From: Moniliella sp. 'wahieum'
Taxonomy: Eukaryota
Assembly (NCBI GenBank): GCA_003971905.1
Contig: RSEE01000002.1
Coordinates: 992,001 to 1,056,000, forward strand
Length of the DNA: 64,000 nt
Reading direction: 5' to 3'
Under the pieces are notes generated by a model. That model was not told the DNA's origin. It worked only from the letters and a program-made list of their open reading frames with translations, and made no database searches. A program made the position numbers and the translations under genes. This document shows, piece after piece, positions 1,459 through 63,051 of this stretch (its first letter is position 1; every line of letters begins with the position of its first letter).

Positions 1459-1507
1459 TCAAGCTATCAAGCTTCAAGCCTTCAAGCTTCAAGCTTCAAG
1501 CTTCAAG
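1459..1507. repeat. (TCAAGCT)n heptamer array
   Basis: tcaagctatcaagcttcaagccttcaagcttcaagcttcaagcttcaag, read directly. Confidence 0.9.
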
Positions 1508-13968: not shown

Positions 13969-14041
13969 TACTCAACGGAGATTCGAACCTGCGGTCTTCC
14001 GTATTACCCAAGGATGGGCTTAACCGCAACACTGTTTAGTC
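13969..14041 (-). pseudogene. Degenerate tRNA-like sequence (pseudo-tRNA or SINE head)
   Basis: Minus strand has a B-box GGTTCGAATC, a near-complementary acceptor stem ACTAAAC/GTTGAGT and downstream T runs; the T-stem and anticodon stem do not pair properly. Confidence 0.4.
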
Positions 14042-14712
14042 TGGATAGGAGAGTTTCCAAAAAGGATTGACCTCTATAACGGATTTTGTGATGCCAAAAA
14101 ACCCCTTCATCAGTCCCCACACTACCAAAGTATGTAACCTGATCGACTAGATCTCAGGGACCTGGAAGGCCTGATCGCCGAGATCTGTCCCCATCATTAG
14201 GAAAATGCCAAAGCCATCGTGAGTAGGAGATACATCGATACAGGGAACCCAAGCCGGCGGGAAGTTCCGGTCACCGGTCGCATCATAGTATTCCATGTGA
14301 CCGGTGTCCTCTGTCTCCTAAGATCAAACGCGCTAATTGAGCGCTGGTGTATAGGTGGGGCCCCACACATTAGAGTGGGCCCATCTCGGAGAAAGCCGGG
14401 CCGGAGTCATGCGTCACGCGTCACGGGTGTCGAGCAGGGGGAACATCACATTTCAGGATCTCCCAAAAGGCTGTAGTGCGGGTGAGATGACATAATTGGG
14501 GTGGCGCCGTATGGGCTGACATGGGAAACCCAGAAACAACATGGAGCTGTCGGATGTGCTGCGATTTAGTAGTTATCCACATACTGTCATCCGGGGGAAT
14601 ATAGCAGGTGCCGCTGGCATCGCGCTCAGCGTTGGAGGCCAGCGAAGAACGATCCGGAATTAACTGTGCATTACTCTTTCATCCACCATCTTCGCGTTCA
14701 CACCTGTTGGCA

Positions 14713-22171: not shown

Positions 22172-22778
22172 TTACTTCTTCTTGCCAGCAATGGCACGAC
22201 CACGACGGCCGGTCGTCTTGGTGTGCTGTCCGCGCACACGCAGCTGGAGGTAGTGACGGATACCGCGGTGAGCGCGGATCTTCTTCAAGCGCTCAATGTC
22301 CTCACGCAGTGCAGAGTCAATGTTGTTCGAAAACAAGCTGGGACGACTTGCCCGTCGTCACATCGCGCTGCCGGTTAAGGAACCAATCCGGGATCTTGAA
22401 CTCCTGCGGGTTATGAAGGATGTTGACCACGCGCTCCAGCTCGTCCGAGTTGAGCTCACCGGCACGTGACAGCGTCAGCTCACGTTCACGATAGAATGGG
22501 TAGGAGAGGAGGAGGGAGAGGGAGGAAGGAGGGGACGGAGGCGGAATGGGGGCATCGCCTACGACGTCCGTGGGATGACAAAAGGGAATCGGGCGAGCCA
22601 CATACCGCTTGTTGAGGTCAATGTCGGCCTTCTTGCACACCATGTTGGCAAAGCGACGACCCACACCCTTAATCTGGGTCAAAGCGTACATAATCTTGAC
22701 CCTGCCATCAACGTTCGTGTTGAGCAAGCGCAAAATGTGCGCAAAGCTCTGCGATGCATCCATAGGAACAAGGGACAT
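22172..22778 (-). CDS. RPS18: 40S ribosomal protein S18 (uS13), 1 intron (~22465-22605)
   Basis: [58 protein letters not shown]...[12 protein letters not shown]...[36 protein letters not shown]; one homopolymer frameshift near 22330. Confidence 0.97.
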
Positions 22779-25172: not shown

Positions 25173-26554
25173 GTCCGTACGCTGAGGGGATGCTGTATGA
25201 TAGGTTCGGTTACGCGTTATCATACGGTTGAAACATGATGTATGACAAGGCTCGGACTGAGCAAACATATGGCCCTCGAATTCCCCCGTTTCTGAGCCAT
25301 CCGCGGGTGTATACAGGTATGAACTGGTATGGCACAATCGAACTGACGATCGGATGGAGTACCGAATGAGCTCGGTAAGCGAGCGTTCGTGTTATTTTCA
25401 TCTCTCTGATCTTAGTACCCTGATGCGCTGCATGATCATCGCCGGACCGTACTGCTGCCACTCTCCTTCGGGTTTTCATTTGGCGTCGTATTTGATGGTG
25501 TGGGTTCTGCCACACATTATGGTGACGACTCTTTTCTTTCTTGACATGCTTCGTAGCTGTGCCGGCTGACCGGTCTCTATTCCCCACCTTGCTCTTGTTT
25601 AGACAAGCTTTCTGGTGTGGAGGAGGGGGAGTTGGCGACGTGGAGGTGATATCTTCCCTAACAAATCCTTTGCGGCGCCGACATGCTCATAGCGGTGATA
25701 CTATGTGACAGTCGTGTCTTCGTTAGACTGCACCTTCCTTCGTGCTCTTGTGTCTCCGTCCTACCCTCTCTCTATGGCCCCGACACCGCTTTTCCACTCG
25801 CTACAATTCGTGCACCGATCACCGGTCATCGATCATCTCCGTGCTGGTGATATCGATGAGTTCCCTAGCTGTTGCGTCGCGGTCGGAGCGTTTTTTACAG
25901 TGGCCACTTGGTCCCGGCGGGCAGGGGTGCTGGAGTGGCTAGTGAGGCCGGACTGGGACAGACAAGCACTGCATGAAACTCAATGGGCGGGAGCGACTGC
26001 GGAAGCTGGCCTAAGGTCCAGAGGCCTCAGGCTCTCATCGATCTCAGGGGAGGAAAGTAAGTGTCGGCAAATGTCACACTCATCCTATGTGGCGCCCCAT
26101 AGTATGTAACGCCCTGTCGCACTTATGCCACGCTGTTATGGTGCGAACTAGGTGGATGAATGCAAGGGTTATAGCAGAGCTCCCCGCTCGTATGTCTGAG
26201 CACCCAGTCGCTGCGCGCGGCCTCTGTGGCGGCAGGAGGCACTCAAATGCCAAGCTTCAAATCATAATCAGGCGCGGCTGCGAGCAGCCTAGGCTGCTTG
26301 GCATGGGGCTAGTGCACAAGCATACACAGCTACCCGAGATATACACGTTGCACAGAGCACCTCGCCGAGCCCAATACGCCAAACCCCCATCCGGCTCTCG
26401 CTCAGGTACTCAGGCGCCCACAGCCAGCCTCAGGCGCTGGGTTTGGCCATTCCTCGGCAACTAGAGCGGCGTAGACCAGTAAAAGAGACAACACGATGAG
26501 TGCGATCGGCATGAATATGAGGCCAGGATGCATGAGGCCGAGGTAGGATGCATG

Positions 26555-27170
26555 AGAGATCAGATCGATCATCGATCATCGATCTTATTGGCGAACCAGC
26601 GAGCTGTCCATAGGCATGGATCCATTCGTAGTACCGGATGGTTGATGATCGATGATTGATGATCGATGAGCGCGAGCGCTGGGATGCATGAGAAGTATGG
26701 TTGCTATGGATGATCGCGTCCTGCGCGGGGGCCTGCGGGGGGCTTTGGAGGCTGGCCTGGGCTGGCAGTGCCTGAGTGTTCCGAAACTTGTCACACCACG
26801 CAGCGGCAAGCACATTTTTCGCCGCCGCAGCATCCGCGCACCAGCGCACCAGTTCGCACGCTCGAGATGGTACGAGGCATGATGCATGATGCATGATGCG
26901 GGAAGCGGGATGCGGGATGTGCTCCGCCGTGCTGCATCCCACGACCCAGGGGGGTGGTCCGGGTGGACGATGATCAATGATCGATGACGCTGGCGACGCG
27001 AGAGGCGTGGTGCTTGGTGGGGCGGTGGCGACCGGTGAGGCCGGAGTGACATGTGGGCGTGTGCGATTTGTGACGTGGGGGAGCGGCGGCCGGAACAGGC
27101 CGGACGCGACGATGAACGCTGCCGGGGCGGCAGATGGCGGCGGGTTGGCCGGTGACCGGTGACCGGTGAG
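26555..27170. repeat. Heptamer arrays upstream of the Zn2Cys6 gene
   Basis: TCGA cores 26562-26584 and 26646-26669; TGCA 26877-26899; CCGG 27149-27169. Confidence 0.85.
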
Positions 27171-27615
27171 GTGAATGCTGGTGAGATGGCGATGGGGCGG
27201 GGAGAGCGGCAGCAGCGGCAAGGGGGCGGCAGCAGAGCAGCAGTGGGCGTGCGGCGCGGCGAGCAAGCGTGCCGGAGCGGGCAGGGGAGCATGGCAGCGC
27301 AGAGCCGCACAGAGCAGCACGCAGCAGCACAGAGCCGCACACAGCAGCACACAGCATGGCGCTGCGGCTTTCTGCGGCCTGCGTGCAGCACTGCTGCCTA
27401 CTGCAGTGCCCAGACACCTCGGTCCGTCAGCGCGGCCGGGCAGAACACCAGACAGCGCACACCCGCGCGGGCGGCAGCACAGGCAGCACCGGCAGACGGC
27501 TGCTCGCGCCTCCCGTCTCCTCCTCTCTTGCCTCCGCCTGTTCGCCGCTGCCTTGCCGTTGCTTCGCCTGGGCTGCTCGCGTTGCTGCGCGTGCGTGCCC
27601 ACAGTGCCCACCCGC

Positions 27616-30600
27616 ATGTCTGCCCCGCGCCCCGCTCGTCCGTCGCCCTCGGCCACCCGCCCCGGCCGCGGCTGCGTCCACGCCCAGCACGCTCCCGCCG
27701 CTGCCGGCCCGCTGGCCGCCATGCCCCCCCTCCGCCCACCCGCACGCCGCCCCCTCCAGCAGCGGCTACTCCGCCTCCGCCCCCCCCCCCGCCCGACTTG
27801 CCCGCATACGGCGCCTACGGCGCCTACGCCATGCCCGCCCCACCCACCGCCCCCGACGACGGGGCTGCCCCCAAGACGCGTACGAGTACGAGTACGAGTA
27901 CGGGTACGAGTACGATCCCTACTTCTACCCGCCACCGCCCACAAGCGTCCCCGCTACGCCCGCCCTCTGCCCGCGCCCCCTGTCCTACCTGCCCCGCCCC
28001 GTCTCCCCACGAGGAGCAGGCCTTTGCCTATGCCCATCAGCGCCACCTTGCTCCGCAGGCCAGCGCCCCCGCCGGCCTGCCAGCCTCGTCCGGAGCACCC
28101 ACGTCTGCTGCCGCTATATCTGCACCCACCACTGTCGGCGGTTGTCCCCATCCCCCCCCGGCAAGTAAGCGACAAAGACGCAGCGTGCGTGCGACTGCTG
28201 CCGCGCAAGCGCATCGCTGCGACATCATCGAGCCCCTCAAGATGTGTGTCCATTGTCGCACTTACGGCCTAGGTGCGTCATTTTACTCTGTTGTTATCAT
28301 CGCTTGCTAACCATGTGTCTGCCTTAGAATGATCCTTCGTTCTGCCCATTTCCGAGACGCGGTTCAAAAAGAAGAAGGAAGCAGATGGTGACACATCTGG
28401 CCACATATGCTGCTGTGGCAGGTCCTTCCTCTGGCGAAGGCTCGCTCTTGCCGCCGGAAAAGCCGAGTCCGGAAGATTCAGTCGACGACGAAGGTCTTCG
28501 CCCGCCATCGACCTCTTGCCTCGTGGCAGTGCCGGTCGGGTTGTGCGACGATACTGTCCTGGGGCCCACTTCCATCGCTTATCTCGTGCATTCCACGCCT
28601 TTGTGCCGACAGGTGCGATGAGGAGCACGACCGCCAGGCTCATCAGACCTTTGAGGTGGGTGCCAATGGAGATGGAGTCATCAAATTCCACAAGCTACCA
28701 GAGGCCGGAGCACGGTGGCCGAGAGCGATTCGGATGGGGATGAGTTGCCGTGGGCGCGCCGGCTTCCATCAAGTTGGAAGCGGACATGGCTCGTCGCAGC
28801 TAGCTGGCGATGTGGCCGAGAAACTGACCAATTCGTACTTTGCTCAATGGGCACTCTCTTTCCGGTGGTCACAAGAGTGAGTTTGTCTATACCACCCGAC
28901 CCCACCGGCGTTGCTCTATTCCATCTGTTCTGTTGCTGCGCAGAGCCGGGAGGTGCCGTCGGAGGTGCGGGCTGTGTTGCGAGGGGAAGTGGCCACCCTT
29001 TTCAAAGACGGTGCAATGCTTTCCCGCTCCCACACGACCACCATTCGCTCCCTTTTGATCATGTCCTTACACCACGATATTCATGGTTCCTTCTCCAAGC
29101 GCCCTCGCGGCACTGGAATCGGACCGGTCTGGGGATTCGGATGGCCCAAGATCTCGGTTTCCACCGTGAGTCCATCTCCCGCGCCAATGGCAGCACACCC
29201 GATGCGTATCATATCGAACAACGCCGGCGGATCTGGGGTGCTTGTGTGTCAGCGGATCGATGGGCGTCTTTGTACGCAGGCCGCCCGCTTTCCATCGATT
29301 TGACCGACTGCGATGTCCGGCTCCCCTCGCCCGTCGAGGTGGTACGTACCAAGCCCGGTTCCGATACGCCCCTCCCTGGCTCAACCGCCGTGACAGGGGG
29401 ACGCAGGTGTTTGCCTTTAACACTGAGATGGTCAAGTTGAGCATTTTGCTGGGCAGGGTGCTGAAAACGATTTACTCCCCCACGGGGCTGATGAATGCTA
29501 CCGATGCTCAGATCGAAGGTCTGCTGGCTGACATTGACGCATGGCATGATGCGCTGCCGCCTCAGTTGAAATACCATGATACGACGGCCAACCCCGGGGC
29601 CGGAATCTTGCAAGTGAGCTATGCCTGTCTCTTGGTCTCTTCTTCCGTGTCTTTATGCGCATCTCGTATGTCTGTCCCACTCATCTTCGCTTCTCCATCA
29701 CGATCGAGCGAATGACGGCGATGCTCACGGCGTGCAAGAGCGCCTGCGACTGGGCTGCCGCCCACCCATTCTATTGCGACACTTGTCCTGCATCTCGTAC
29801 TGCAATCGTCTCGTGTGCCCCTTGCTCTACCACGCGTATGTGCGAAGGAAGGACCAAGTGGCCCTGGAAAAGCTCCGAACCATTGAGAAGGTGTATGCGT
29901 CGGCGGACCCGTCAATGCACGTTCTCAAGAAGATGTGGAAGTTTCGCCAAAGACCACGCGCAGCTGCGTCCTCGCAGGAGGTGCAGGAAACGTGGAGGCC
30001 ATCTCTTCCACGGACGCTTCCTGGCGCAGCAAGTGGGGCGGTGCTCAAGATTCTTCTCGATGCAGCTCAGGGTGCTTATCCTTCCGACGCTCCTGCCAAG
30101 GGTCCGCGTCGTGCCTCTCTCTGGGACGGAGTGCTGAATCCCACAGCCGGAGTGAGCAACCGCAAAACGGTGGAAATGGTGGCTTCGCTCAAGTTCCGCC
30201 CGATCCCACCCTGCCAGGGGGCGGGGTGTTCGTTGCGGATGCCGACATGTTGGTGGCCAAGGATTTGCCTGGCGGAACAGTAATTCAGAAAAGCACAGAG
30301 AAAGCCAAAGGCGAATTGAAACGCAAGCGATCGGATGCGATGAGGATGCCGGTGCGGATGCGAATGCGGATGCGACCGAGCCGGATCTGCAGCAAGTCCC
30401 GCTTCGCACACCCTTCGCAGGACGTTGCACCCGAAGGCAAGTATGAGTGGCCCATCACGTCGGCTTCGCTCCTCCACATCCGCACAGGGGGGGGCGACGG
30501 ATGCTCCCGCTCGGTCGCCTTTGCGGCGGGCGGGGAAGCGCCTATGATGGCAAGCCCGTTAGGTTCGAGCCCGGTACGGGGCCAAGGTGGTCACACGTTC

Positions 30601-34609: not shown

Positions 34610-35753
34610 GGATCCCGGTGTGAAGAAACAGGGGGTATGGGTGCTGATTGAGGTGAAGGGGAAATTGTACGTAGGCCACGGGGGTTCCTCTACTCTTTCT
34701 TCATCTGTGGCCCGTTCACGGGAAGGAGAGGCAGTGCATCCAGTTCCACAGCGAGAAAGAGCACATCAACTGGTACCGACTGGGGGGGGTGAATGTACGC
34801 GATGAACCCCGGTGCTATGCCTCGAGGCGGAACGAACCAGAGATGCAATGGTCTGAGGCTAGAGGCCTGAGGATCACTTTGATCCACACTCTTGGGAAAC
34901 TTCGCATCGTTCGTCAGAGGGCCCAAGCCACCATGCAAGGTACACCTTCCTGCTAGGATCAAACTGGGGCGCTGGTCAACAGGGCACCCCTCCGAGGAGA
35001 GAAGGGGACAATCGTCAATGTGGTCGCATTGCTTTTGCTTCCGTTGTAGGCAGGGAGGCAGCTCCCTACCTGGGAACGAGGACAGTACGAATATGTTCCA
35101 ATAGAGTGGCAAGCCTTGCACTTTCCAGCCCTTCGTGCTGTGACAAGACGGCCATGCGAGTTGGTGCAACAGGGGTGGGACTGGGTTTGAGCTGGGGTGA
35201 GATAAATACAACAAACGGGTACATCGTTGCGTGAAGTAGTTGCGCCACTAGACAACACAACGTTAGTTCACTTCAGCACGGCCATAAGCGTCTTGGCTTC
35301 CCGCTTGGCGCGAGCCATGGCCTTCGCATGATTCCCGGAGAGGACACGCAGGACCCGCAAGCAGTTGGAGGGTGGAAATGTAGGCCAGAGGGCCCAATAG
35401 GTGGATGATGGCGATGAATATGTGCTGCAGCAGCGGCTGGCTGGCTTGGTGATGGGGTGAAGCGTGGCGGCTACCAGACCCGGCTGGGTCGGCGTCCCGC
35501 GCGGCCATTGGTACTCGCCGGGTCAGCCTGCCCATCAGGCTAGCTGCCCAATATAAAGCAAGGTGCGGTGCAGCGGCGGAAGGGGTAGGCGGAATGACAC
35601 AGCTGATGTAACTGCATAGCCCCAGCCAACGAAAAAATTTGGAGGCCCATGCATGATGAAACCTGTGGCCTCAGGGCATCATGTGACCCATTCTGTCCTC
35701 CCGCTCTTCCCTTTCCATTCTCCTTCCTGTCACCGCCGCCACAACTGTACACT

Positions 35754-37047
<1,294 letters not shown>

Positions 37048-37459: not shown

Positions 37460-40400
37460 ATGGCAAGCGACCCCAGTGCGGCTGACGCTGACGCCGGCCC
37501 GCCGCCGATGGCCACAACACCGCCGCTGCTGCTGCCCGCACTGCGTGTGACGGGCGCGCCCGACCCAGACCAACTCTACGACACCGAGTGGCACCGCCGC
37601 CTCCAAGTCCTCTCCGCCCCCCTCGCAGCCCAGCTCGGCAGCGTCGATGGCGCCGCCCTACGCCCACCGGCCGCCTCACTGGCGGACCTGCCGGCGTTGT
37701 ACCAGATTCAGCTCTTCCAGGAGCATGTGCTCGGCATGGATGCTCCGCGCCCCGCCAACCCCGACGCGTCTGAGTCTGCTGCACGCCACCCTACCGCCTA
37801 CCGGCTTGGTGCTTCCGACTGCCGCCCGACGCGCGCTCAGAGCAGGCCCTACACGCCCTGCTTCTCTGTCCTCCAGCAGTATGCCCGCTTCGTCCCTTCA
37901 ACCGGAGAGGACATCCTGGAACCTGCTCGCCGACCCTTCTACGCCTCCGTCTTGGCCACCGCACGCGCCCAGCTCAAAGCCCAGGGCATTCTCCCCTCCA
38001 TCTTAGTCTTTGCCCCACCCGAATGGCCTGAGGAAAAGAAGGCGCAGGCCAAGAGCTGGTCTGACTTTCTTGAACGTACGCACTGCTTCCCTCTAACCCC
38101 TTTGTACTGTTTGGTGGGGCTAACCTCCATACTCATTCTGCTTCTTAGTTGACTGGACGACGGACCGTGCCTCGGCCACCCACATCTTAAGAGACACGAT
38201 TCCTGGAGAAGAGAAAATTGAAGGCCACCAGGCATACCGTACTGTGGTGGTCGATGGTCCCAAAGCACTGTTGCATTTTTACGGGCGGCCCGGCTCGTAT
38301 GATCGCTGGGTGATCAACAGGACCGATTTGGCCCCTCCCTCAGGGGAAGTGCCTCCCCGTGTCCAACCTATGCGAGGGCGCGAGACAAGTTTGGCATGGC
38401 TTGAGAAGAGTGCATTGTACAACGAAATCTTGGACGAAGAGGACTTCGACCTTCCTCCTGCTTCTTCCGCCGCCGACCCCCATGCGGAGCTAAGTGTTTC
38501 CGATGCTGCTGCCCATGGTACCAAGCGCCTGCCTGATGAGCTCGATACGCCAGAGGGAGCAAGTATTAAAAAGGTGCGTCTGGAGATGGAGCCAACGCCT
38601 ATGCCAGAAAGTGCAAGTGGCACCCCACCCGCGCACCCTTTGCCTTCATCAACTCTCCCTACGTCCGCCGCTCCTACATCCCACCAAGAGAGCACGCAGG
38701 ACATTCCACCCGCTGGAGATACGCAGGACATTCCCACCACTGGAGATACGCAGGATATTCCCACCACTGGAGATACGCAGGATATTCCCACCACTGGAGA
38801 TGCGCCGGATATTCCCCTCCCTGAAGGTACCGAGGTCATCCGCCCTCCCGGGGAGGAGTTCGTTTGCCTGTCCAGGCTGCCTGGTTTTCTCTGCAGCGCA
38901 TCCATCCCATTGAGAGACGTTCTTTCCCGGAATTCTTCACAGGTCAAAACCGAAGCAAGACGAGCGGGGTGTACAAGCAGTACCGTGACTTTATGGTGTG
39001 CACGTACCGCCTTAACCCATTGGAATACCTTACGTTACCGCTTGCCGTCGCAACTTGCGTGGGGACGTGTGCACTCTCCTGCGGATCCATAAATTCTTGG
39101 ACCAATGGGGCGTGATCAACCATCAAGCTCTGCCTGACTCGCGGCCACAACGATTAGCCCCCCCTTTGTCGACCACTTCCGTATCACGGTGGATGTGGAT
39201 CGTGGCTGGGTCCCGCCCAAGCTGCCCCTTTCCAGACGGCGCGTCCCCAGACCGCACGAACCCGAGTGGACATCGAGTCGTTTGCCAAGGGGCTGGATGT
39301 CACTGACTGCTGCGCCGGAAAAGGGCGCCCCCAGAACGGGGACATTGCACCCGCCTGTTCGCCCTATGGTGCGGTTCACTTGCGATACGTGCGGGGTAGA
39401 TTGTACCCGAACACGGTATATGCTACTGCACCCCTCCAAGGAGGAGGAAGGAAGCTCGTGGTGTACTCTATGCTACGAGGCAGGGCGTTTTCCTTCCTCT
39501 GTGGGGTGGGGCGATCTGCTTCGAACCGAATTCGACCCTTTAATCCACAGGAAGGCGCACACGCTCTTTGGCGAGCTCCTCATCAGCCTCGGATGATTGG
39601 TCGGAGATGGAAACGTTGTTCCTCCTTCGTGCTGTGCGTGCACATGGCATTAATTGGGACGCGGTGTCCAATACGGTGGGTACTCGTTCGCCTCAAGAAT
39701 GCGCGCTCAAGTTCTTGAAGATGCCGTTGGAGGATCAGTTTTTGAACGAGATGGAACCTAATAAAGCGGGGAAACTGAATCGGGCGCAGCATCACGCCAC
39801 CCGTGCTGGGCCCATATGGGTTGACCGGACAAGGCCGGTTTGCTGCTCCTTTCAACAATACGGACAGCCCTGTGTTGTCCGTCTTGGCCGTCTTATCCTC
39901 TTTGGTTCCATCGGACGTGGTGCAGCATGCTACTGGGCGTGCCCTTGCTGCGCTGGAGAAAATTATCACCAAGGGAACGGAACAACGGGCTGAGCAGATG
40001 GAAGCCAAGGCAAGGCCCATGCTCTTGCCCAGAAGAAGGAACAAGCTAAAACCAGCTCCGAAGCCAACGGCCGGAAGAAAGAAAGCACTGCTGAAGCCCA
40101 GACCGGTGATCAGTCCAAAGATGAGCCTAAGGATGGGAAATGGGTCCCTCCAAGGGAGAAGAGAGCGGCTCTGGCGAACACACATCTGGAGGCGATCCAG
40201 AAAATAAGCAAGAGCATGGTAAGGAGCCTGCTCAACCGAGCCAAACTGAAGATGAAAGTACCATGGACAAGCCCGAGTCAGGGCCGGCTGGTCATCTTGC
40301 CTCAGAGGTTACTCCTCAAACTGCTTCCACCAAAGACGGCGCAGAGCCAGCTTCATCCGTGGGGAAGATGGCCCTAGCCGCAGTGTGCCTGCCGGTGAAA

Positions 40401-43395: not shown

Positions 43396-45080
43396 ATGGG
43401 TGTTCCGGATCCCTCTGCCCCCAACCGCACTCCTTTGCGCAACTCTAACATTCGCACTCCTTTGCGCAAGTCTAACATTACTAAGCATACGAAAAAACGT
43501 CGTTCACCGTTCGTCTCCTCCAAGAAGGCCAAAATCATTGGTATCGATCCCGAAGAGCTGGAGGTGCAGCAGTTTTTGGGCCCTGAGGCGGTGGAGCGGC
43601 GTAGGTCGCCAAGTACAACCCAAGAGCATGTACATTCCATTGGACACACCTTTCAGGTCACTATTGAAAGGCTCACGCCGACCGGGTGCGGCCTTGCGCG
43701 AGATCCACTAAATGAGGATTGGGCCATCCTTGTTCCCAAGACGTTGCCCGGCGACAAATTGGTAGTGAGGGTCGTGCACAATTTGAGATGCATTCTAAAG
43801 CTCTCATCGAGGACATTTTGGTCCCTCTGAAATGCGTACCGAGACTCCCCTTTGTAAGAACTTCCACTCCTGCGGTGGATGCCAGTACCAGATGCTGTCC
43901 TATCCCCAACAACTTGATCTGAAACGCCAAGTGGTGGACAAGGCGTTTGCAAACTACAGTGGGTTGAAAGTCTCCCTCATCCCGCGGGCGGAGGAAACTT
44001 TGCCTTCACCTAAGGAATATGGCTATCGCACAAATTTTTACCTCACTTTGAGCTGCCTCCCAGAATACGCAAGTGGAGGGAACAAGAAACGCTCTACGCC
44101 AAGTTGTCCAAAAAGTCTTTGGACTTGTCGAACCCAGTTTACCCACCACCCCCGCCAGAACCATTTCCTATTGGGATGAGCGGAGATGATGGCTGCGTGA
44201 TGGATATTGATGACTGCCGTCTTGCGACTGATGCGATGAATCAATGCTGAAAGAGGTGCGGAAAGAGGTGCAGGACAAAATCCACCACTACCGTAATGGG
44301 GCGTCACTGTTGATACGGGATTCGCTGGTCCCTCCCAACTTGGACTCGGTTTCGAATGGGAACCACTCACCTCGCAAGTGGTAAACGGATCAAAAAAGGG
44401 GGTGTGGCGTATGAAAAAGTGGGTACTACGTGGTTCCATGTCCCGGCCAACGACTTTTTCCAGTTCAACCGTTCCATCCTCGTTCCCTTTGTCGAATACA
44501 TACGCAACGAGATTGTGCGCTGGAGGTCCACCCTCCCAGCGGCCCAGAGCGCCGAGCCAAGTTACCTGATTGACGCATACTGTGGGTCGGGACTGTTTGC
44601 GCTGACGCTGGCACCCATGTTCAAACAAGTGGCTGGGGTGGAAATCTCCTCAAAGGCAGTCGAATGTGCCGTGGAAAACGCGGCGGCCAACAACGTGCCA
44701 ACGTTACCTTTCAATTGGGCTCGGCCGAAAAGATTTTTGGCACCAAGCACATCAAAATGTTTGAACCGGAGAGGACTACGGTGGTGATTGACCCCCGCGA
44801 CGTGGCTCCGACCCAGTCTTCCTGAATCAACTACTCAAACTGCGCCCCAAATGATCATCTATGTATCTTGCAACGTGCATACCCAAGCTCGCGATGTGGG
44901 CTATCTCCTCAATCACGATCCCGCCTACTCGATCTTCTCCCTCCGTGGTGCCGACTTTTTCCCTCAGACCCAGTATGTTCATCCACTCGATGGGCATGGT
45001 CATTAACCATTTGTTATTGGTCATACTAACCCCTTTCTTGCAGCCATGTCGAGGGAATTTGCATACTGCACCGAGAATAA
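43396..45080 (+). CDS. TRM2: tRNA (uracil-54-C5)-methyltransferase
   Basis: TRAM-like N-terminus, CGGCQYQMLSYPQQL, FFQFN, LIDAYCGSGLFAL, IIYVSCNVHTQARD, DFFPQT/HVE with an intron near 44973-45042. Confidence 0.93.
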
Positions 45081-46271
45081 GGCCAGCCCACCCATAACCA
45101 TCCTCACCGTGCCATGCGCCCTACCCGCTTTTGCTCGGCTGGCTTTCCCTCTCTACCTGCAGGAGCAACGTACGGGAGTGTCCCACTGTGACCATAGGTT
45201 CCCTTACATCTGATCCAATCTGCTCTCGTATGCATCCACGAGGAACAGAGTGCAGGCCTGGGAAGCATTCCAGGAAGGCGGACCAGCTTTCGATGAGATA
45301 TGCATGCCCGGCAGTGGATGGCGGTGCATAAGAAATGGCCTATGCCGGGTATGGTGCTACAAACTGGGTTAGTGAGGCGGGGTGGTATGACAGCTCTGGC
45401 GTTCTGATAGTGGGGCGCGATGACTTTTCAACACCACGATGGCAGAGTTTCCCCCAAAGCAGAAGGCAAATGCTCATGCTTTGTAAAAAGTAGGAGGTCG
45501 CTCCCACTCAAAAATACAACCGTGTCTGCTGAAAAAGTCTTTGGTGCCATAGATGAAGCTAGCTAAGCTCTGATGCAGCAGGGCTAAAAAACTGGCCACT
45601 GGCAGGAATACAAACACCGTTTGAGGTCTACAGCCGGAGTGGAGGGACTTGGTAAATATAATCATGGCTCATCCTAAATCCACAGACAGATGGGTCTTCA
45701 TGAGGTCTTCATTTCTCTGTCCAACTCTAGAACTGAAGTCGCGTCGTATTTTCTTAACGGGGTCCTTTCCTGATCCAGTAAGTATTCCTTGCATCCGCAA
45801 ACCATGTTGACACCACAAAACCCTTATTCTTGGCTTGAAGTGCACCCTTGAATGCGTTTCGCCAACTCAGGACAGTGTCCAAGTTCGCTCCGAGAGTGTG
45901 GATACCTACCAAGCCCAAACCTCATATATAGTTTTTTATTTGGGGCCATCGACAACTGGTGGGACAATTACGATCGACCCCAGGGCTTCTGCGGTTCGGG
46001 AGCAGCAAAGGGTGCCTGTTCTCTTAGATGTCGAAGAAGGCAACGGTCATGAAGACGAGAGTAGTAAGGATGAGGTGCACAGGCGCGGCTGACGAAGGTG
46101 AGGAACTGTAACGGGTGCACTCCGGCAGCTTCAACTACGATACGACCTGGTTAGTTCATGGGCCGTTATCAGAAGGGCACTACTAACACAGCTACAACAG
46201 GCCAAATAGGGATATTGCGTGCAAAGAAAGGACATGGTGGCCGTCTCTTGTCCAAGAAAAAATAGATAGAG

Positions 46272-48083
46272 CTAAGGGCCCCAACTAGATCGCGGGGAAC
46301 GCGCTTGACGGTCCCTGTGGCCCCGAATGGAATGATCGCGCCGCAGCTGGTCCCGCCTGGAACCGTGGCTTGAGCGCGCATCGTACCCTCTGGACTCTGA
46401 ACGGTATCCCGGACCGACGGAAGAACGGTCATACTCCCCAGGTGAAGGAGGAGAAAGCATATCGCTCGCCCTTCGTTTCTTGGCCAAGTCAGGACCCAGA
46501 GAGCTATGCTTGCGCTTCGTAGGACGCTCGTCCTCTATCCGACGTGGAGGGGCCTCCGACGAACTTTCATCCAAGGCGGGAGAATTGTTCTGGACGAGCT
46601 TGTTGAAGAGGTCACGCATCTTACTTGGCTGAACCTGGGAGCATCAATCATGTTAAGCTTCCACCCTAACAAGAGATGAATGGGAATGGGGGACGTACCT
46701 CGGAAGGCCAAAAGTAGGATGCAAACGTCACAGGTGACGCTCAAGTTTTTGACGTTGAGCGCGCGACTGAGTCTGGGACTGGGTCTTGACCAAGCGATCG
46801 ATCTGTTTTCCGATTGCAGCGAGCGCAAGCTTAAGAATCGGCACTGTGTGTTCGCGATCCATCGGGTCGAGTCCATTCCGTAGACGTTTGAGATGCTTGC
46901 GACAGGGACGAAGGAGTTCTTTGCATTGCGCTTCATCCATATCGTCATCTTCATCCTCCTCTTCCTCTTCTTCCGAGTCAGAGTAATCCAGCGATACGCC
47001 CCCTGGACCGACGGAGGCACGGGCTGGGAATCCCTCACTCATGGAAAAATCCGACGCATCAGCAACCACGGCCTTGAGATGATCATCGTGTTCCCGCAAA
47101 ACCTTGAGCAGATAATCTGCCCTCCGCACGAGGTGGACTGAGCTGGGAATGGCCTTGACTTTGGACCAGTCATCGCCAGACTGAATGGCTGGGGCGGGGC
47201 TGTCCTTAGCTTTGTGTTTTTCCTTCTTGGCTTCCTCCACTTTCTTATTTCTCTCCTTTTCTTCCATCAAGAAGAATTTGCCTGTCAGCTTAAGACCCGG
47301 ATCGGCTTCGACTTGCTCCCACGAGCCCAAGCCATAGCGGTAGCACCCGATAAGCAGGTGGGCGTCATCCTCGGCACTCCAGGGCACAGACCAGTTCATG
47401 GTCGTCTTGAGCGACTTGGCCGGCACGCGCCACGCATTCTGTTCCTCCTCGTCTAGTGGGTCCAGCGTCTCGCCCAAGAGGCGAAGGTCGTTGTGGCGAA
47501 TGACCGTCGTCTCGGCATTGATCTTGTCGACGCCATGAAACTTGACTAGGACAGCCTTCTGTCGCAGTTTGGATACATCCTCACCGCGTGCTAGCATCGC
47601 GCGCAGCTGGCGGTCGTGGGCTTGAACAGCCGCCGTGCAGATCGCAAGGAGGTCGGCCGTGGTGCGCATGACAACGGCCTTGTTCTTACCTTGCAGACGG
47701 GCCTCCTCCACCAGCTGATCATAGCGGTAGCCGGGGTCGCCCCACTTGTGCACGCCACGGAGGAGTGTACGAATGTCGCGATCGTTGATCTCCATCGACT
47801 TTTCCGCAGCCGACTTGAGCTTGCGCCGGGGCACGGGTGCAGACGTTGGTTTGCTGGGGGCAGAGGAGGCGGCGGCGGCAGGCGGATCGGCGAGGCTGGC
47901 GCTGCGGCTGCGGCTAGGGTGGGGGCTGCTGCTGCCTCGACGGCTGGGTTCAGGCTCGGGCGAGGCAGCAGCGGACTCGGTGCCCTCCGAGTCGGAGGCG
48001 AAGATGGGCATGGGGGCGGCGGTGGTGGGAGGGGCAGAGGTGGGGATGGTGGCGGCCCGAGCAAAGAGGATAGGATGGGGCAC
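46272..48083 (-). CDS. CHD1-derived protein containing only the SANT-SLIDE DNA-binding region and C-terminal CHCT (DUF4208) domain
   Basis: RDIRTLLRGVHKWGD, KQKAVLV-like RQKAVLVKF, INAETTVIRHNDL, WSVPWSAEDDAHLLIGCYRYGLGSWEQVEADPGLKLTGKFFL, VHLVRRADYLL, CKELLRPCRKHLKRL...HLWTFASYFWP; intron ~46636-46698; no chromodomain or Snf2 ATPase motifs upstream. Confidence 0.85.
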
Positions 48084-48486
48084 GCAAGACCGGGGGGGCG
48101 GCGTGCACGGAGGCGGCAGGGGAGTGGGCGTGCCGACGGCGGCTGAGCAGGACGCAGGACCAGTGCGAGTGAGCGGTGAGGGTGAGCTGGCCAGTTGGCG
48201 CTGCTGCGGCTGGGGGTGCGGCGGGTGCGGCGTGGTGCCGGTGCACGGCGGCTGCTAGCAGCGGCGGGGCGCGGCTGCCGGGGCTGTCGGGGTTGCCGGG
48301 GTTGCCGCGGTTGTCGGCGGGGCGGGCCAAATTGGCCGCCCCGACGGAGCAGCGCCGCGCAGCCGCTTGGCTGCTGGCGGAATAGCCGCCACCTGCCCCG
48401 CCCCTGCCCCCCCCCTGCCCCGCGCTGCCTGCATCCTGTCGGCTATGCCCTGCGTGTCCGCCCGCGCGCGCCCGCATCCATGCCCA

Positions 48487-48727
48487 CTAGTCCTGCGACG
48501 CACATCCCCGGCACCCACAGTTCTGGCACTCCACCACCGGCCCCGCCCGCAGCACCGCCTTGGGCACGCGGCAAATGCACGTCGCGCCCTCGGAGTTGTT
48601 GTCGCGCGCTTGGTTGCAGCGCACGCAGCACAACTTTCCGTACCCTTGCCGCTTTCACTTGGCCATCAGACTGACATAGCGTTCCTTGATCAACCAGTCG
48701 TATCCGGCTGGTACGGATCGATGGCAT
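48487..48727 (-). pseudogene. BUD31: BUD31/G10 splicing factor relic with large internal deletion
   Basis: MPSIRTSR joined directly to [69 protein letters not shown]; the Cys-rich C-terminus is clearly Bud31 and the helical middle is absent. Confidence 0.85.
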
Positions 48728-49062
48728 GGAGGGGGCACCGCGCTAGCTACGCTGCAAGTAGTAGCGTAGGGATGATGGGTGGGAATGTACTTGTGGTTGC
48801 GGTAGCTCTCGTGAACGACGCCACCAGCTTCTGCTACTGAGGGTCCCGCGTCCCGTGGGTCCAGCGTCCAGCGTCCAGCAGCCCCAAGCACCCAATTTCC
48901 GGCGGAGTAGTTGGGCACACGAATTAATGAACTTTCATATTTCACCCTCTCTCCAATTCCGCCGCCTGGGCATACGCGTTCCACCAACCACAGCGGCGGC
49001 GCACACATCCCCTCACGCCCAACCCCACCGTCGTCCCCCTCCCCTCCCCCTCCATCCGACCC

Positions 49063-49994
49063 ATGCAGACCGTACTCGCTCCTGCCTCCGCCCCGGGCTG
49101 CCTGTCGCGGGAGCCAACCAGCGTGGCTTCAACCCCTACACGTCCAACGGCGGCTCCATCCTCGCTGTGGCAGGACAAGACTTTTGCGTCCTGGCTGGCG
49201 ACACTCGTCAGTCTGAGGGCTACAACATCCAGACCCGCTACAAGCCGCGCGTATTTCGTCTGTGCGTACCCGCCTTTCTTCTGTTGGGCTGTTCTGCCAT
49301 GCTAACTCTTACGATGTAGGAACGACCGTGCGACGCTGGCGACCAATGGGTTTTCCGCCGACGCCGAGGCGCTGGTGCAACTGGTTCGGGCCCGCTTGGA
49401 GCTGTACCGCTATGCACATGGTAATCGATGCCCCTTGCGGGGATTGCACGCATGCTCTGCACTATTCTGTATGGCAAGCGATTCTTCCCGTACTATGTGT
49501 GGAATGTGCTTGGTGGTCTGGACGAGGAGGGGAAGGGTGCTGTCTACTCGTTTGATCCGGTCGGTTCGTACGAGCGCGAGGTGTGCCGAGCGGCCGGGGC
49601 GGCACAAAGCTTGCTGCAGCCTTTCCTCGACTCCCAGGTGATGTACAAGAACCAAACCGCCACCCCGGGGCGGCCGTTACCCATCCCAGGCCACATTTCG
49701 CTCCAGCATGCGATCAGCATCGCCACCGACTCGTTCACCTCGGCCACCGAGCGACACATTGAAGTTGGTGATGGCCTGGAGATCTTTGTTGTACGCAACC
49801 CCAAGGCGGAGACCGAGGCAAAGGAGGAGGATGCGACGATGACGGGGCAAGATGGATCGGTGGCGGTGCCGCCGCCGGCGAACGCGCTTAACCTCCTCGC
49901 CGCGCCGTTCAATGCCGTTGAGGCGCAAGGGGGAGAAGATGAGCAGCTTCCTGGTGCGACATTGGTCATTCGTAGGGAACTCAAGAAGGACTAA
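49063..49994 (+). CDS. PRE7: 20S proteasome subunit beta-6 (PSMB1), 1 intron (~49263-49319)
   Basis: FNPYTSNGGSILAVAGQDFCVLAGDTRQSEGYNIQTRY, LYGKRFFPYYV, GKGAVYSFDPVGSYERE, DSFTSATERHIEVGDGL, C-terminal RRELKKD; start codon approximate. Confidence 0.96.
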
Positions 49995-54126: not shown

Positions 54127-57100
54127 ATGGCAAGCGAGGCCCAATCCTCTCCTGGGATTAGTAGCGCACCTGAAGCGCGAGAGCGTGATGCCACCGCTCG
54201 TTTTCTCTGGCAACAGGCGCACTTGATCCAGCGCGAGTTCGCCGCCACACAGGCCCGCGACAGTCTACTGGTTGAGCCCCATCCGCCCGAGGAGCTCGAG
54301 GCACAGGGTCTTGGCATTTTGCACCTTTATGCCCGGAAGGTTCGGCACACATGGCAAGGCGTCAGTCTCACATTGGAGCTCTTGCCATCAATTCGATCGC
54401 GCTACCTCCCCATCCATGCATTCAAGAAGGGTAGCGTTGCGCCTTGCAGGACGAAACCGCTCCATGGGGCGATTATTGGTCCACCCCTACCAACGGCGAT
54501 GGGACCAAAGTGCGTGCTGCTAATAAGAGCCGCAAACCCCGTTCCAAGCGTGGGCGTGGTGAGTCGCACCTCTCCTTGGGCTGTGGAGGTGATTGTGCGT
54601 CTGCCACACGGCCAGAGGCCACCCCTGATAGGGTAGCCAAGTTTGCCGCCTCGTTACCGACTTCACTGCGTCCGTGGCCCGAGCGGACTTTGAGGTTTTC
54701 CAAATCATGCGACAAGCCATCGAGGCAGTGGCCACCCCATTGAACGCTCGTCTCCCTGCGAGCCACCATAAGACCTCTACGGACAGCAAGAAGAGCACTC
54801 CCCAAACAGTTGGGCCGTCGCGCGCCTTGCAACCTGGGAATACCAGGCCATTTCCACGCACATGCGCGCTATTCTCTGTTCGGACGAATTTGCCTCTGCT
54901 CCTCAAGCGAATGAGGAGAACCTCCCCCTTTGCCCTTCAAGCCGTTTAACCAAGGGTTGAACGAGGAGCAGCTTAAGGCGATTCGCCGTTCCTTCCTCCA
55001 CCCTTCACTACACTATGTCCAGCCCACTGAAGACGGTTCTCCCCGCCGCCTTTGGTTCAGGAAACGAATGATGAGTCGGATGACGACACATCGTCACAAG
55101 CGTCAGACCTCGTCTGTCATTACCGCGGAACTGGTTCGGAGGAAGCATGAACTTGATGATCTTACCGACCAAATGTCTCGTTTGGACGTGCAAAAACAGG
55201 AGGATCCCAGTCCTAGTCTGAATCTGTTCCGTCCTCCCCAACTCAATGAGCTAGAGATGGGGAAGAACGTGCTTCCCCTTCATCTTCTTCATGGCCCGCC
55301 TGGAACAGGCAAGACGACAACGCTGGTGGAGCTGATTGTTCAGTTGGTGCTAGGAACAAGGATTGGCACCGAACCCGTGATGGTGGACGGACAAGTTGTC
55401 AACTATGGCCGTCGCCCCCGAATTTTGGTCACGGCCCCTTCCAACTTGGCCATTGATACGGTTGCGGAGCGGCTGGTAGCGCATGATAAACCTTGGTTCC
55501 GATTTTTCCGTGAGCACCAAATCAAGGTAGCCCGAATTGGTAACCCCGTGAGGATGACCGAGCGGGTGGCACGGCACATGCATCACTTTCATGGGTCTGC
55601 TCTGGTGAGCTCTGCACCTGTTCGTACCAGCTCTGCGTCTGCTCCTGCCAGTTCTGCAGTTCCTCCAGCCGGGCCTACTTCGCCGGCTGGTGGAGACACT
55701 GGTTCAGGTACCGCATCGCCTTCACCTGCCGATGGGGGTGCCGCCTCAGCTGCACCGGAGCACCTACTCGAACGACCTGTAACCGGCACTGCTGATTCGA
55801 AGAATTGGGACCAAGCAGCTGAAGTGGTGCTGAGCACCTTGCATGCAAGTGGAGTTTGGGATCTTCACGGGACGTTTGACTTTATCATTATTGACGAGGC
55901 GTGTCAGGCGGTTGAACCACTGTGCTGGGTGCCGCTGACACGGGCCTGTCCTGATCCGCAAGGCCCACCTGTGAAGGTGGTGATCGCAGGCGACCCAAAG
56001 CAACTGGGTCCAGTGATTATTTCGGAGGATGGGATGACACCTCCCCCTGCGCCCGATGCTGAGGAGTTGGAGAAGGCGGGCGCTCCAGTTCTTGTTCCTC
56101 CTCAGATGCTGCAGGAAACCATGTTTGAGCGTCTGCTTTTGGCCTATCGCGGCTGGCCGGGAATCAAGACATTCCTCAGTGTTCAGTACCGATTCAATGA
56201 GCAGATCATGGCGTTCCCCAACACGTCCATGTACGAAGAAGGACTGCGGGCCTATGCGACCAACGCATCCATTAGATTGAACGATTTGCCCAATACGTCG
56301 CAGCTCACGTCCAAGCATGGCTTGCCTCTTCTACCTCCTACAAAAGGGACAGAGATGCCATCGGGTTTCAAGCATACTGCCTACTTCAACAAAGACAAAG
56401 GCAAAGGCAAAGGCAAAGGCAAGGGACCCCCTCCTCGCCCTGCCAAGTCTGGGGGAAATGGCAAAAAACCATCGACCAAGAGTCAAAAGGAGAGGAAATC
56501 CGCTTTGCGGGCCGAGAAGAAGGCTAAGAAGCAAGAGGAACAAAGGTCGCTCAGAATGCTGGGAAGAAGGCTGCCAAGGAGGCGATGCGCGAGGAGAAGG
56601 CCTATGCCTCATCTTCGGAAGAGGAAGAAGAGGAAGCAGAGGAGGATGCCGAGTGGGATGCCCCGCTCGTGTTCTACGACACGGCAGGATACGACCTCTG
56701 GGAATCGAAGCCGACCAGTGGGGTCTGGGGAAAGTCTAAGAGCAACCAAGCCGAAGCGCGTTTGGTCGTGGCTCATGTGCTCAAACTCTTGGCTCATGGG
56801 GTCCGGCCGGAGCAGATTTCGATCTTGACTCCGTACACGGCCCAGGTGCGCGCGTTGCTGGAGATGGAGGTGATGCGTGCAGGAGGATCGACGGCTCGAT
56901 TCGCTCGATTTTACCCCGAGATTGCGATTGGCTCCATTGACTCGATGCAAGGCCAGGAGAATGAGTTGGTCATTGTTTCTCTGGTGCGGAGCAACCGAGC
57001 CCATGAAGTGGGCTTCCTCAAAGACCTTCGCCGGCTCAATGTCGCCTTGACGCGGGCCAAGCGTCAACTATGTATTGTGGGTGACAGCGAAACGATCGGG

Positions 57101-57190
57101 GGCAAGCATTACTCGCTTCCGTACTTGCGGAGCTTGATGCTTCACTTGAAGAGCAACGCTAGTTTGCCTTCGATTGAGGCGCTAGTCTGA
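54127..57190 (+). CDS. Superfamily 1B (Upf1-like) helicase, Hcs1/IGHMBP2 type
   Basis: LNEEQLKAI (Q motif), HGPPGTGKTTT, LVTAPSNLAID, IIDEACQAVEP, AGDPKQLGP, QYRFNEQI, SILTPYTAQV, IDSMQGQE, VGFLKDLRRLNVALTRAKR; frameshifted. Confidence 0.92.
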
Positions 57191-59651: not shown

Positions 59652-61097
59652 ATCAAAGAGAAGCGCGAATGCGCCTAGGGTCATGAGAAGCGCGGGGGCA
59701 GCAATGTGGGTGCGCATCGCGCCCGACTTGGAGGAGGAAGAGGATGGGGAAGATCCCGAGCTTGAAGCTGAGCCAGACGGGGAGGAAGAGCTGCTAGCGG
59801 AAGTGCCGCTTCCGGTGCCGCTCCACTGCTGCTTCCTGCAGGCGCTTCGACATGCACGTCAATGTCTTGAACAAAGATGCGGTACTGGCTTTGCGGGTCA
59901 GAGAGCATAGGGTAATCTTGGTGGGAGTAAGGCAGAATATCAAGCGTAAAGTTGGCTGCATTGAAGGGCTTGTATGCGTTTTCCAGATTCGTTCCGCGCT
60001 CGAGATGGGTAGAGCCCTCACATTGCGCAGCCGGCTTGGTGTCGCCAGGGCCATTGTCTTTGGATCCCAGAGCATGGTGCATGGTGCGCGAAAAGTAGCG
60101 TTGAATCGTAGCGTTGCGGTCGAATCCGTTCTTGGCGTAAGCAGGCACACCGTCCAGGCCGTAAGGCCAGGTGTCGAAGCCGGTGGATGGGCACCGGCCC
60201 TGACCAGGCGAAACGGGGCGGTCGGTCGTTGGCCAGGTGTAGGAACCGCAGTTGCCGTACCAGTAGCGCAGGTTGGCGTCATTGGGGCCGGGCTTACGCA
60301 GCATGGCGTACCGCTGCGTAAAAGAGCAACCGAGCGAGTGGCCAGCAAGGACAATGTTGTTCAGGTTAGGGTAGGTGGTGCGGTTGAAGAACAAGTCGAG
60401 CATCTGATCGAACGCACGGAACGAGGAGACGGATGCATCCCCTGGACCCTGGGAGATTTGCCCTTCGGCCCAGCTGCTCGGGCCAAAGTACAGATCGCCA
60501 TCTTGAACAGCACCGGCTTTCTGCTCGAGGGTGGACTGCCACGCGGGGGCAGCAATAAGGATGGTGGACAAGTCGACGCCCAAAGTAGCATTGTTGGCAG
60601 CACAAAGAAGATCGTTGCGGACCAAGCTGGCGTACTTCCAACTATCGCGCGGCTTGCCGGGCTGAATAACAACGACACGTTTGATCTTGGTTGGGTCTTT
60701 GCCCGTCTCGACATAGTAAGGCAGAATGCCGCCCTTGGTGTTTCCGCCTACATGCAGGTCACGCTTGAGGTCAAAGCCGAGGAGCTGGGGAGCTCGGTCC
60801 AGCCAGCGGTCTGGCTGCCGCCTACCTGAGGCGACCCAATAAAGGCCGTGTTGGTGCACCAGGCCGTCTGGGAGTTCTGCGCGACGTCTTGGCCTTGAAG
60901 AATGACGGTCTGACCCGCCGCATCGCCGGGGCGAGCGCCGGGAGGGCATCGCCATTTTTGAACTTGCTGGCCAAGTAGCTGGCTGGGTCGAGGGGGTCTG
61001 CGCCGGCCTGGCGGGCGAGAGGGACACGCTGCAGGCGGTGGGCACTGGCTGTGGCCACGGCGGCGCCGAGGGCAGCGATGGTAAGCGAGAGGCGCAT
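59652..61097 (-). CDS. Secreted alpha/beta-hydrolase-fold protein, probable GPI anchor
   Basis: Signal peptide MRLSLTIAALGAAVATASA; nucleophile motif LAGHSLG followed by QRYA; Ser-rich linker and hydrophobic tail (SGAMRTHIAAPALLMTLGAFALL); 3' end approximate. Confidence 0.8.
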
Positions 61098-63051
61098 GTT
61101 GTCGGCTGCTGGGGCGAGGTGGTGGGGGTAGGAAGCGGGATGGGGGGGGGTGCCGGGGCGGGAGGGTGGATGGATGCGCGCGAGAGGCGGCCACGCATTG
61201 GAGGGTTCGGCTTGGCGCGTAGCCTGCCTTGGCCTGCCTGCTGCATGCCAACGACACCGGAGATCCAGGGTCTGCCGGCGCAGGCCGGCGCTCTAGAGGC
61301 CTCGTGCAGCGCTTGCGGCAGACGGGCTGTGTGTTGCTGTGTCGCAGTGTTCTCTTGGCGTTGCGGGGCGGCGGAGCCAAGAGAGTGCACGTGGAGCCAT
61401 CGTACCTCGTGCTGATGCACTGTTGCAGATGCAGGGGGCCGCTGAGCGCTGACTATGACTAGGCGGCCTGGGAGCTGGTGCACCGGCGCCGATCGGCCAC
61501 AGGGGCGCAGGATGCCCGCAAGGGGAGAGGTGCGTGCGCCCCCTCGCAGCACGGGGGCAGGGAGCCGCTTCGCGTTGATCGACATCCCATATGCCACCAG
61601 GGCGAGGTGCTGCTGCGGAACGGAGGCGGACGCGGAGTACGCGAGCAGGGCAGGGCAGCTGAGCACTGTGGGCGGTGCGGGTGGCGGTGGCGGCAAGTGA
61701 TCTGCATGGCGCGTGACTAATAACGTCCTACTGATTAAGCAACGAGTTCAGTACGTTCAGCGTACTGGCAGCTCAAGCACTGGAGCTGAAGCAGGCTGAA
61801 GCACTGCTGCAGCGCTCCTGCCGAGCTGGTGGCTGGCTGCACCGCCCTGCCCCATTCCACCGCTGACCGGTGATCATCCTACCACGCACTAGCCGAGCGT
61901 GGGCGGAGCTGCGCCGGTAGCATGTAGGCAGCACCTCGGGTGACCGGTGACTAGTGACCAGTGACTAGCACTGGTGACTAGCTGGTGACCGTGCCCGGTG
62001 GGACGGCTGGCCATATGCCAAGAGTCAGTCACGTGGCTGCTCGCCACATGCGGCACACGTTACCGTCACACGTCATGAATGCCTAGGGACATGGTGGCTG
62101 GCTACTAGGCTACTGCCGGTAGCTCGGCACGCCTCAGTCTGAGTACCCAATCACTCTACTCAGTATAGGCGCTAGGTTCTCGGTAGATACCGTGCTGAAC
62201 CGATGAACCTCTGAGGTGGAAAGGGTATGTGCACCCAGACGAGGGCAGGAATGTGTTAGCCCTAAGGCCTAAGGCCTTAGACCAAATCCTCCACGTGCAT
62301 GCTTGGCCACATCATGTGAATGTCATCTCTCGTCGCATGTCACACCCATGCGTGCGTGAGATAATATGCACATCACGTGCATCTCACTGCCGCAGGGATG
62401 CAGATAAAAAAGGTCACCTGGAAATGTATGATGGCCACGGCATGCTGGCAGCTTGTCTCGTTCTATGGATACGAACAAGACTGCGCCAACACTTCAAAAG
62501 CTTGGGGACACGACGACGGTCGATGCCGATGAATCAGGACGATCGGAGTCGATCGAGAGGCAATTGCACCAAGCATCAGATCGATGAGAGCATAACGAGA
62601 GAATAGGGAGTTTAAAAGCGGGGGGAACTATGCACCTTCGCTCCTAAGTACCCTAAGTAGAGAGTATAAAATCAACAACCAAGACAGCGGAGCAGGGAGA
62701 AGACAACTGTGCTCCCACGCCGTTGGAAGTGTGTTGGTAAGCTAAGTGTGTGTTGGTAAGCTGTTCGGCGCGAATAGCAAGCACCCTTTCCGTCCCTTTT
62801 GTATAAAGAAAAGCCTCCCTTTGAATGGTTACGCTGGCAACCTCAAGCACAGACTATATGAAATCCGGCCGGTCTCTTGACCCTCCCCCCCCCCCCCCCT
62901 CTCCCGGGTTGTGTATAGTCTCTCCTGTTGGTCATATTGGTTGTACCATGTGGCATGCATATACACAGGGATCACCAATTGCCCGTCACGCGGGCATGCG
63001 TGCTGGGAGCCTTGCCTCTGCGACGCTATTAGTATCGACACCTGCATCGAC

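Follow-up and report, generated by a model that had tools for sequence, protein, structure and literature searches.

A CHD1 piece without its motor beside a BUD31 pseudogene in Moniliella sp. 'wahieum': a possible young deletion remnant

Here we describe a CHD1-derived gene of Moniliella sp. 'wahieum' that lies in a 64,000-nucleotide (nt) stretch of contig RSEE01000002.1 (assembly GCA_003971905.1, positions 992,001 to 1,056,000), hereafter the window, whose own coordinates are used throughout. The open reading frame (ORF) is the last third of a fungal CHD1, with linker, SANT-SLIDE DNA-binding domain, CHCT domain and tail, and runs from 48011 to 46272 on the minus strand. Exon 1 (46699..48011, minus strand), placed by Pfam matches and translation, starts with an ATG at 48011-48009 and a Ser/Pro/Ala-rich leader of 57 codons and 73% G+C (47841..48011, minus strand), delimited by alignment with relatives. 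Behind the leader, Pfam and alignment place the SANT-SLIDE domain at 47088..47789 (ORF residues 75-308) and the CHCT domain at 46699..46955 (ORF residue 353 onward, including a last helix that lies past a frame break), both on the minus strand. The frame is open for 427 codons from the ATG to a TGA at 46730-46728, and for 508 codons from stop to stop; the last 10 codons of exon 1 (46728-46699, 'TFASYFWPSE') sit in another frame. A 64-nt intron (46635..46698, minus strand, GTACGT...CAG) leads to exon 2 (46272..46634, minus strand), which consists of 120 codons and a TAG at 46274-46272 and begins VQPSKMRDLFNKLVQNNSPA, resembling KMRDIFNKLVSNDSPA of the Tilletiaria CHD1. In the related proteins P0004 and P0005 the same 'WPTE' is continued by 'VR', and we read the intron position before the tail as common to them and the window gene. 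If the base missing at the frame break is allowed for, the product would have about 558 amino acids (aa). The 50 nt preceding the ATG form a pyrimidine-rich tract of the kind found in fungal 5' leaders.

The initial annotation had described a 451-codon frame that carried SANT-SLIDE and CHCT motifs behind a short Ser/Pro/Ala-rich leader, and had placed the gene boundary at 48083. Domains and leader are borne out, whereas the length and the boundary had to be corrected to the values given above. In the 427-aa translation of 46728-48011, the Pfam family HTH_CHD1_Hrp3 matches residues 190-308 (E 2e-21, 76.2 bits) and CHD1-like_C, which is CHCT (PF13907), matches residues 353-424 over positions 1-70 of its 96-position profile (E 4.8e-13, 49.8 bits); Cdh1_DBD_1, the SANT-type domain of CHD1, scores 23.6 bits, under its curated cut-off of 26.4. 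The alignment with relatives, in which SANT-SLIDE was placed, has 53 columns that are invariant across 8 rows. The piece thus has the SANT-SLIDE domain, the CHCT domain and the orthologue-like tree placement of a CHD1 subfamily member, but the tandem chromodomains and the Snf2-type ATPase of that subfamily were not found within the 64-kb window.

The nearest relatives are P0004 and P0005, followed by Tilletiaria anomala K437DRAFT_274892 (P0006) and the CHD1s of Ustilaginaceae. Identity of the ORF to the nearest CHD1s is 48-51%, and rises to 59% with P0004 when the 352 columns compared in the tree alignment are used. With fungal CHD1/Hrp3 proteins the window gene shares the linker, SANT-SLIDE, CHCT, the intron position and the tail motif 'KMRD.FNKLV'; unlike them, it is without the N-terminal region, the double chromodomain, the Snf2 ATPase and the conserved segment that follows the ATPase, and it has a shorter linker between the DNA-binding domain and CHCT as well as a faster-evolving CHCT. 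That linker (46955-47090, minus strand) is some 35 residues shorter than in relatives, is without their 'KKR(R)' basic patch and carries an expanded acidic run before 'MDEA'.

Absence of the chromodomains and ATPase, as proposed at the outset, was confirmed for the window by both methods used. With four ATPase-bearing CHD1s (P0004, P0005, P0006 and P0009) and the short P0001 as queries, tblastn matched the window only at 47840-46464, where the 1758-aa Tilletiaria protein P0006 aligns from its residue 1160, and no chromodomain or ATPase stretch of these queries found a match in the 64 kb. Of the 130 stop-to-stop frames of 130 aa or more, 86 were scanned with Pfam and gave no match to Snf2, Helicase_C or Chromo, and neither strand of 47594-49128 yielded a family except BUD31 and Proteasome. 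Snf2 (PF00176) and Helicase_C (PF00271) are present in every one of the 29 longer relatives.

There is also little room for a motor upstream, again in keeping with the original observation: a BUD31 relic ends 476 nt before the ATG, and the start of PRE7 lies some 0.9-1.05 kb upstream, on the opposite strand. The intervening spacer (48012..48486, minus strand, 475 nt) is characterised by base composition and repeat search as 75-78% G+C with short G+C-rich tandem motifs, and matched no protein family in any frame tried. CHD1 homology breaks at or beside this spacer. Relatives have a conserved 'FAQV.DFK..V.WEDIIP' about 40-80 residues upstream of the DNA-binding domain, which is absent in the window, and the leader shows no more than a weak alignment to the disordered linker ahead of that domain in full-length CHD1. 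The leader was also considered as the native N-terminus of CHD1, a candidate that we rejected because the leader, set against N-termini and linkers from relatives, yielded low-complexity noise only. An imperfect direct repeat of 29 nt joins 47901-47929 with 48203-48231, and 47850-48760 has no second copy within the window. Capture by a mobile element was likewise rejected, as neither terminal inverted repeats nor long direct ones were found around 44800-49300.

A maximum-likelihood tree of 18 rows and 377 columns places the piece as sister to P0004 plus P0005 (SH-aLRT 98), in a clade with Tilletiaria (99) and inside the Ustilaginomycotina CHD1 clade. This is where an orthologue would sit, and the suggestion that the piece is an internally deleted paralog found no support. 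From the node shared with P0004 and P0005 its end branch measures 0.46, against 0.37 and 0.38 for these two. Invariant columns were counted on 13 of the 18 rows, after dropping five of the seven near-identical rows of the Ustilaginaceae clade. The window piece loses 3 of the 49 columns that are invariant in the 12 other fungal CHD1 rows, which themselves lose 0-6 when left out in turn; all three losses fall in the CHCT region and none in the DNA-binding domain. Tajima-type counts of unique changes in the DNA-binding domain, window against P0004 or P0005 with three outgroups, were 24 v 26, 11 v 29, 17 v 20, 20 v 27, 16 v 30 and 25 v 19, so that the window lineage has no excess of change over its full-length relatives there. 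Beyond the frame break the last CHCT helix, the intron and the tail are still conserved.

The break that interrupts CHCT creates an in-frame TGA at 46728..46730 (minus strand), with CTGTGACG where relatives encode H-L-W-x-F-A; one base appears to be missing from the Trp codon, between 46729 and 46728. In relatives CHCT ends '..HLW(A/K)FA(S/A)(Y/L)FWPT(E/K)V', continued in tail-bearing models by 'K(M/L)R(D/A)IFNKLV', whereas the window has 'ERHL', then the TGA, and the 'TFASYFWPSE' of the exon end in the other frame. In two metagenome relatives (L001 and L002) the matches on either side of the break share one frame, from which the window is offset by one base. Similar breaks occur in neighbouring genes. 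In RPS18 the frame changes at 22331, around a run of four T, where 'GKSSQLV' ends at 22332 and 'SNNIDS' starts at 22330, and the two sides match solved uS13 chains contiguously (residues up to 99, then from 97-99 onward). PRE7 changes frame within 5 nt (49423-49427), a TRM2-like methyltransferase gene does so three times within about 160 nt (44697-44854), twice beside C runs, and the SWIRM domain of SWI3 is split between two overlapping frames near 39034-39061. With CHCT included, this makes seven single-base frame breaks in five conserved genes, several of them located within short base runs or adjoining them, and in each case the protein is conserved to either side. Introns do not explain them, since the flanking conserved residues abut or overlap and leave no room. 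Many indels accompanied by few substitutions are unlike decay, and for this reason we regard the breaks as probable base-calling errors; as CHCT shows the same type of break as RPS18, PRE7, SWI3 and the TRM2-like gene, its TGA is read as a single-base assembly error rather than as a mutation. Together the breaks are taken to point to an unpolished assembly of long-read type. Assemblies of that type are, in our judgement, unlikely to drop 3 kb of unique sequence. Apart from its frame break, RPS18 (22175-22357, minus strand) contains an 11-residue stretch that differs from the 'RHYWGLRVRGQ' of a solved uS13 chain; its codons TAC CTC CAG CTG correspond to no simple one-base error, and the stretch is either a lineage-specific change or damage.

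The gene next to the CHD1 piece presents another picture. A BUD31 pseudogene (48487..48727, minus strand) was delimited by alignment to intact BUD31s and is matched by Pfam BUD31 with E 3.9e-16. Codons 1-8 ('MPSIRTSR', 48727-48704) abut residues 76-148 (48702-48490) directly but in another frame, so that residues 9-75 are missing; a two-residue deletion and a TAG stop at 48489-48487 are present as well, and a TGA at 48657-48655 replaces a conserved Trp. Like the BUD31/G10 splicing factors of Atractiella rhizophila, Microstroma glucosiphilum and Acaromyces ingoldii, the relic keeps the Cys-rich C-terminus, and its residues 76-148 are 62-66% identical to these three intact basidiomycete proteins (148 aa); unlike a complete BUD31 it has neither the length of about 148 aa nor an intact frame. 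It has lost 4 of 28 otherwise invariant columns, while 11 intact BUD31s, each left out in turn, lose 0-1 of 24-25. Judged from these alignments the BUD31 relic is a real pseudogene, and its true degenerative lesions indicate that the locus suffered real deletions. Its start codon lies about 0.2-0.35 kb from the divergently oriented PRE7, and the relic looks to be at its native place. It raises the question whether the organism carries a second copy of BUD31 or lives without BUD31. PRE7 itself (proteasome beta-6; 48927..49994, plus strand) was placed by Pfam and, as described, has a frame break of its own; the frame of its middle exon found no match in PDB at E <= 0.01, and is the same frame that Pfam matches.

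A search of 1.84 billion representatives returned 479 matches, of which the best 150 were considered. Ninety-nine of these best 150 are shorter than 800 aa and, set against P0006, most begin inside the homologous region. Among the matches listed, six short proteins have a foreign leader and Pfam DNA-binding domain and CHCT matches only, without Snf2 (P0065, P0077, P0136/P0183, P0167, P0174 and P0176; 29-37% identity to the window protein), and the contigs of four of the six measure 1.7-4.1 kb. On longer contigs are P0176, a 797-aa 'ATP-dependent DNA helicase Hrp3' of Friedmanniomyces endolithicus (233,781-nt contig), and P0136 and P0183, with 560 and 574 aa on contigs of 100,858 and 19,151 nt, both with DNA-binding domain and CHCT only; each of these three may be a split gene model or a genuine short form. 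A family of short proteins of this composition is not evident, the look-alikes being mostly fragments on very short contigs. Among the papers listed by a literature search on the Chd1 DNA-binding and CHCT domains, likewise, no title or abstract opening describes a natural stand-alone form, which is not proof of absence. Conserved gene order was looked for in metagenome contigs, where BUD31, PRE7 and TRM2 at E <= 1e-4 were found near none of 29 CHD1 loci, 12 of which came with a complete 10 kb of upstream sequence; the 29 loci are distant (27-48% identity) and uninformative for the window's own lineage. For five of the 29 (L001, L002, L006, L016 and L023) tblastx showed no clear similarity outside the CHD1 tail, with scattered short pieces in L016 and L023.

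Taken as a whole, the piece is more likely a deletion remnant or an assembly fault than a proven new stand-alone protein. We tentatively favour a real and comparatively young deletion remnant of a live CHD1 gene, although we would put this reading at somewhat less than an even chance. A genomic deletion or rearrangement would have removed about 1,100 codons, encoding the N-terminal region, the double chromodomain and the Snf2 ATPase, and would have left behind the 3' third of the fungus's own CHD1 with linker, SANT-SLIDE, CHCT and tail. The event would be young relative to the decay of the adjacent BUD31 pseudogene, so that the remnant still looks like a live gene, and may be confined to a single strain or allele. 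We infer that such a remnant would have no selected function of its own. Several observations weigh against this interpretation. CHCT has accumulated 16-19 unique changes in the window lineage against 2-7 in P0004, P0005, P0006 and P0007 (8/8 comparisons, p 0.001-0.033), an evolution roughly three times faster, while eight control comparisons of CHCT among other lineages are balanced (4 v 6, 3 v 6, 5 v 3, 7 v 8, 5 v 7, 9 v 5, 9 v 8 and 4 v 3), and a young deletion does not explain this acceleration. The 557 codons are free of stops apart from the frame break, a weak sign in the same direction, since in simulation a sequence stays free of new stops with a chance of 0.08 at a neutral divergence of 4.6% and of 0.33 at 2%. 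Finally, the adjacent CHD1 and BUD31 lesions look like one event; if they were, the truncation would be as old as the decay of BUD31, in which case conservation of the DNA-binding domain would imply selection.

A rival proposal is that the gene is a retained and expressed motor-less CHD1 derivative of about 558 aa, predicted to bind linker DNA or nucleosomes through SANT-SLIDE and Rtf1/Paf1C through CHCT, which we consider doubtful without dismissing it. Its role would be that of an adaptor, or it would compete with any full-length enzyme; it may stem from the same complex deletion that killed BUD31, and may be transcribed from the BUD31/PRE7 divergent promoter or from a new one. A single complex deletion that both killed BUD31 and cut away the CHD1 motor, with SANT-SLIDE and CHCT kept by selection and CHCT drifting for want of an ATPase to regulate, is no better than a modest possibility. 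According to PMC12390759, residues 863-1468 of yeast Chd1 (DNA-binding domain and CHCT), as well as CHCT alone, bind Rtf1 in two-hybrid assays; CHCT suffices for binding the Rtf1 N-terminus, with its last helix as the predicted interface, and slows the ATPase in vitro. The yeast 863-1468 construct resembles the window protein in extent, but is laboratory-made rather than a natural gene, and its binding of Rtf1 speaks for a retained protein, as does the CHCT acceleration, which would fit relaxed constraint on a domain that is reported there to slow the ATPase and to couple Chd1 to Rtf1. So do the preserved intron and tail, the pyrimidine-rich 50 nt ahead of the ATG, and a DNA-binding domain that is no faster than that of full-length orthologues and has lost no invariant column, against 4 of 28 in the BUD31 relic at a distance of 0.5 kb. 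A retained DNA- or nucleosome-binding protein had been suggested in the initial annotation, and conservation of the DNA-binding domain at the level of full-length orthologues agrees with it, but agrees equally well with a young deletion or an assembly fault. Moreover, the motor is universal among the longer relatives compared, the short database proteins are mostly pieces on 1.7-4.1 kb contigs or unnamed gene calls, neither start codon nor leader is conserved, the ATG is separated from the BUD31 relic by only 475 nt of low-complexity DNA of 75-78% G+C, and a transcript from the BUD31 promoter would carry a 94-codon ORF first.

An artefact of assembly, in which the true gene is full-length and at least about 3.3 kb went missing where sequence was joined within the G+C-rich low-complexity stretch, seems to us unlikely, if still a serious contender. 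In its favour, the CHD1 piece has every appearance of belonging to a live gene, the seven single-base breaks make plain how unpolished the assembly is, and homology ends in 75-78% G+C DNA with short tandem motifs and the 29-nt imperfect direct repeat. The errors actually seen, however, affect single bases, apparently within short runs, and are not large deletions. SWI3 (SWIRM, SANT and SWIRM-assoc_1) and an Upf1-like helicase (AAA_11 and AAA_12) keep all their domains, the BUD31 deletion is real, since extra substitutions accompany it, and the junction sequence has no second copy within the window. An artefact also leaves the CHCT acceleration unexplained. Gene fission, with the chromodomain-ATPase half a separate gene elsewhere and the two products cooperating, would agree with a motor absent from the window and a well-conserved DNA-binding domain, yet no split CHD1 appeared among the relatives retrieved, and the upstream neighbour is a decayed gene and not a tidy new promoter; we hold it to be very improbable. 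Least credible is a long-dead pseudogene fragment in neutral decay like the BUD31 relic: although CHCT has a frame break and the neighbour is a pseudogene, the branch length is normal, the loss of 3 of 49 invariant columns lies inside the 0-6 range of intact genes, the DNA-binding domain is without excess change, and the only stop is the one that results from the single-base break, with conserved sequence beyond it.

Elsewhere in the window, three frames of 64-66% G+C (26433-27953 on the minus strand, 27156-28307 on the plus strand and 59684-61747 on the minus strand; 507, 384 and 688 aa) have no Pfam match and probably represent low-complexity coding sequence or frames open by chance in G+C-rich DNA. 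In 1-16400, 14 frames of 130 aa or more were scanned and none matched Pfam at E <= 0.001, which may reflect frame errors, novel genes or non-coding DNA. The AAA_12 match of the Upf1-like helicase (54915-57187, plus strand) covers profile positions 1-56 up to about 56294 and positions 49-194 in another frame from about 56612; the two pieces are about 317 nt apart, separated by an intron or a frame error. A Peptidase_M24 frame (35818-36486, plus strand) covers only positions 2-117 of the 208-position profile, and the remainder of the profile had no match in plus-strand frames of 60 aa or more in 35607-36986.

If the CHD1 piece is the product of a young deletion or of an assembly fault, its value is practical. 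The window combines frequent single-base errors with at least one real pseudogene, and gene models or calls of "domain loss" made from this assembly therefore need checks at the level of reads. If, on the other hand, the piece is expressed and under selection, it would constitute a natural experiment on the Chd1 DNA-binding and CHCT domains without their motor, with Rtf1/Paf1C coupling or competition on transcribed genes as candidate roles, in a fungus that would be living without a CHD1 motor.

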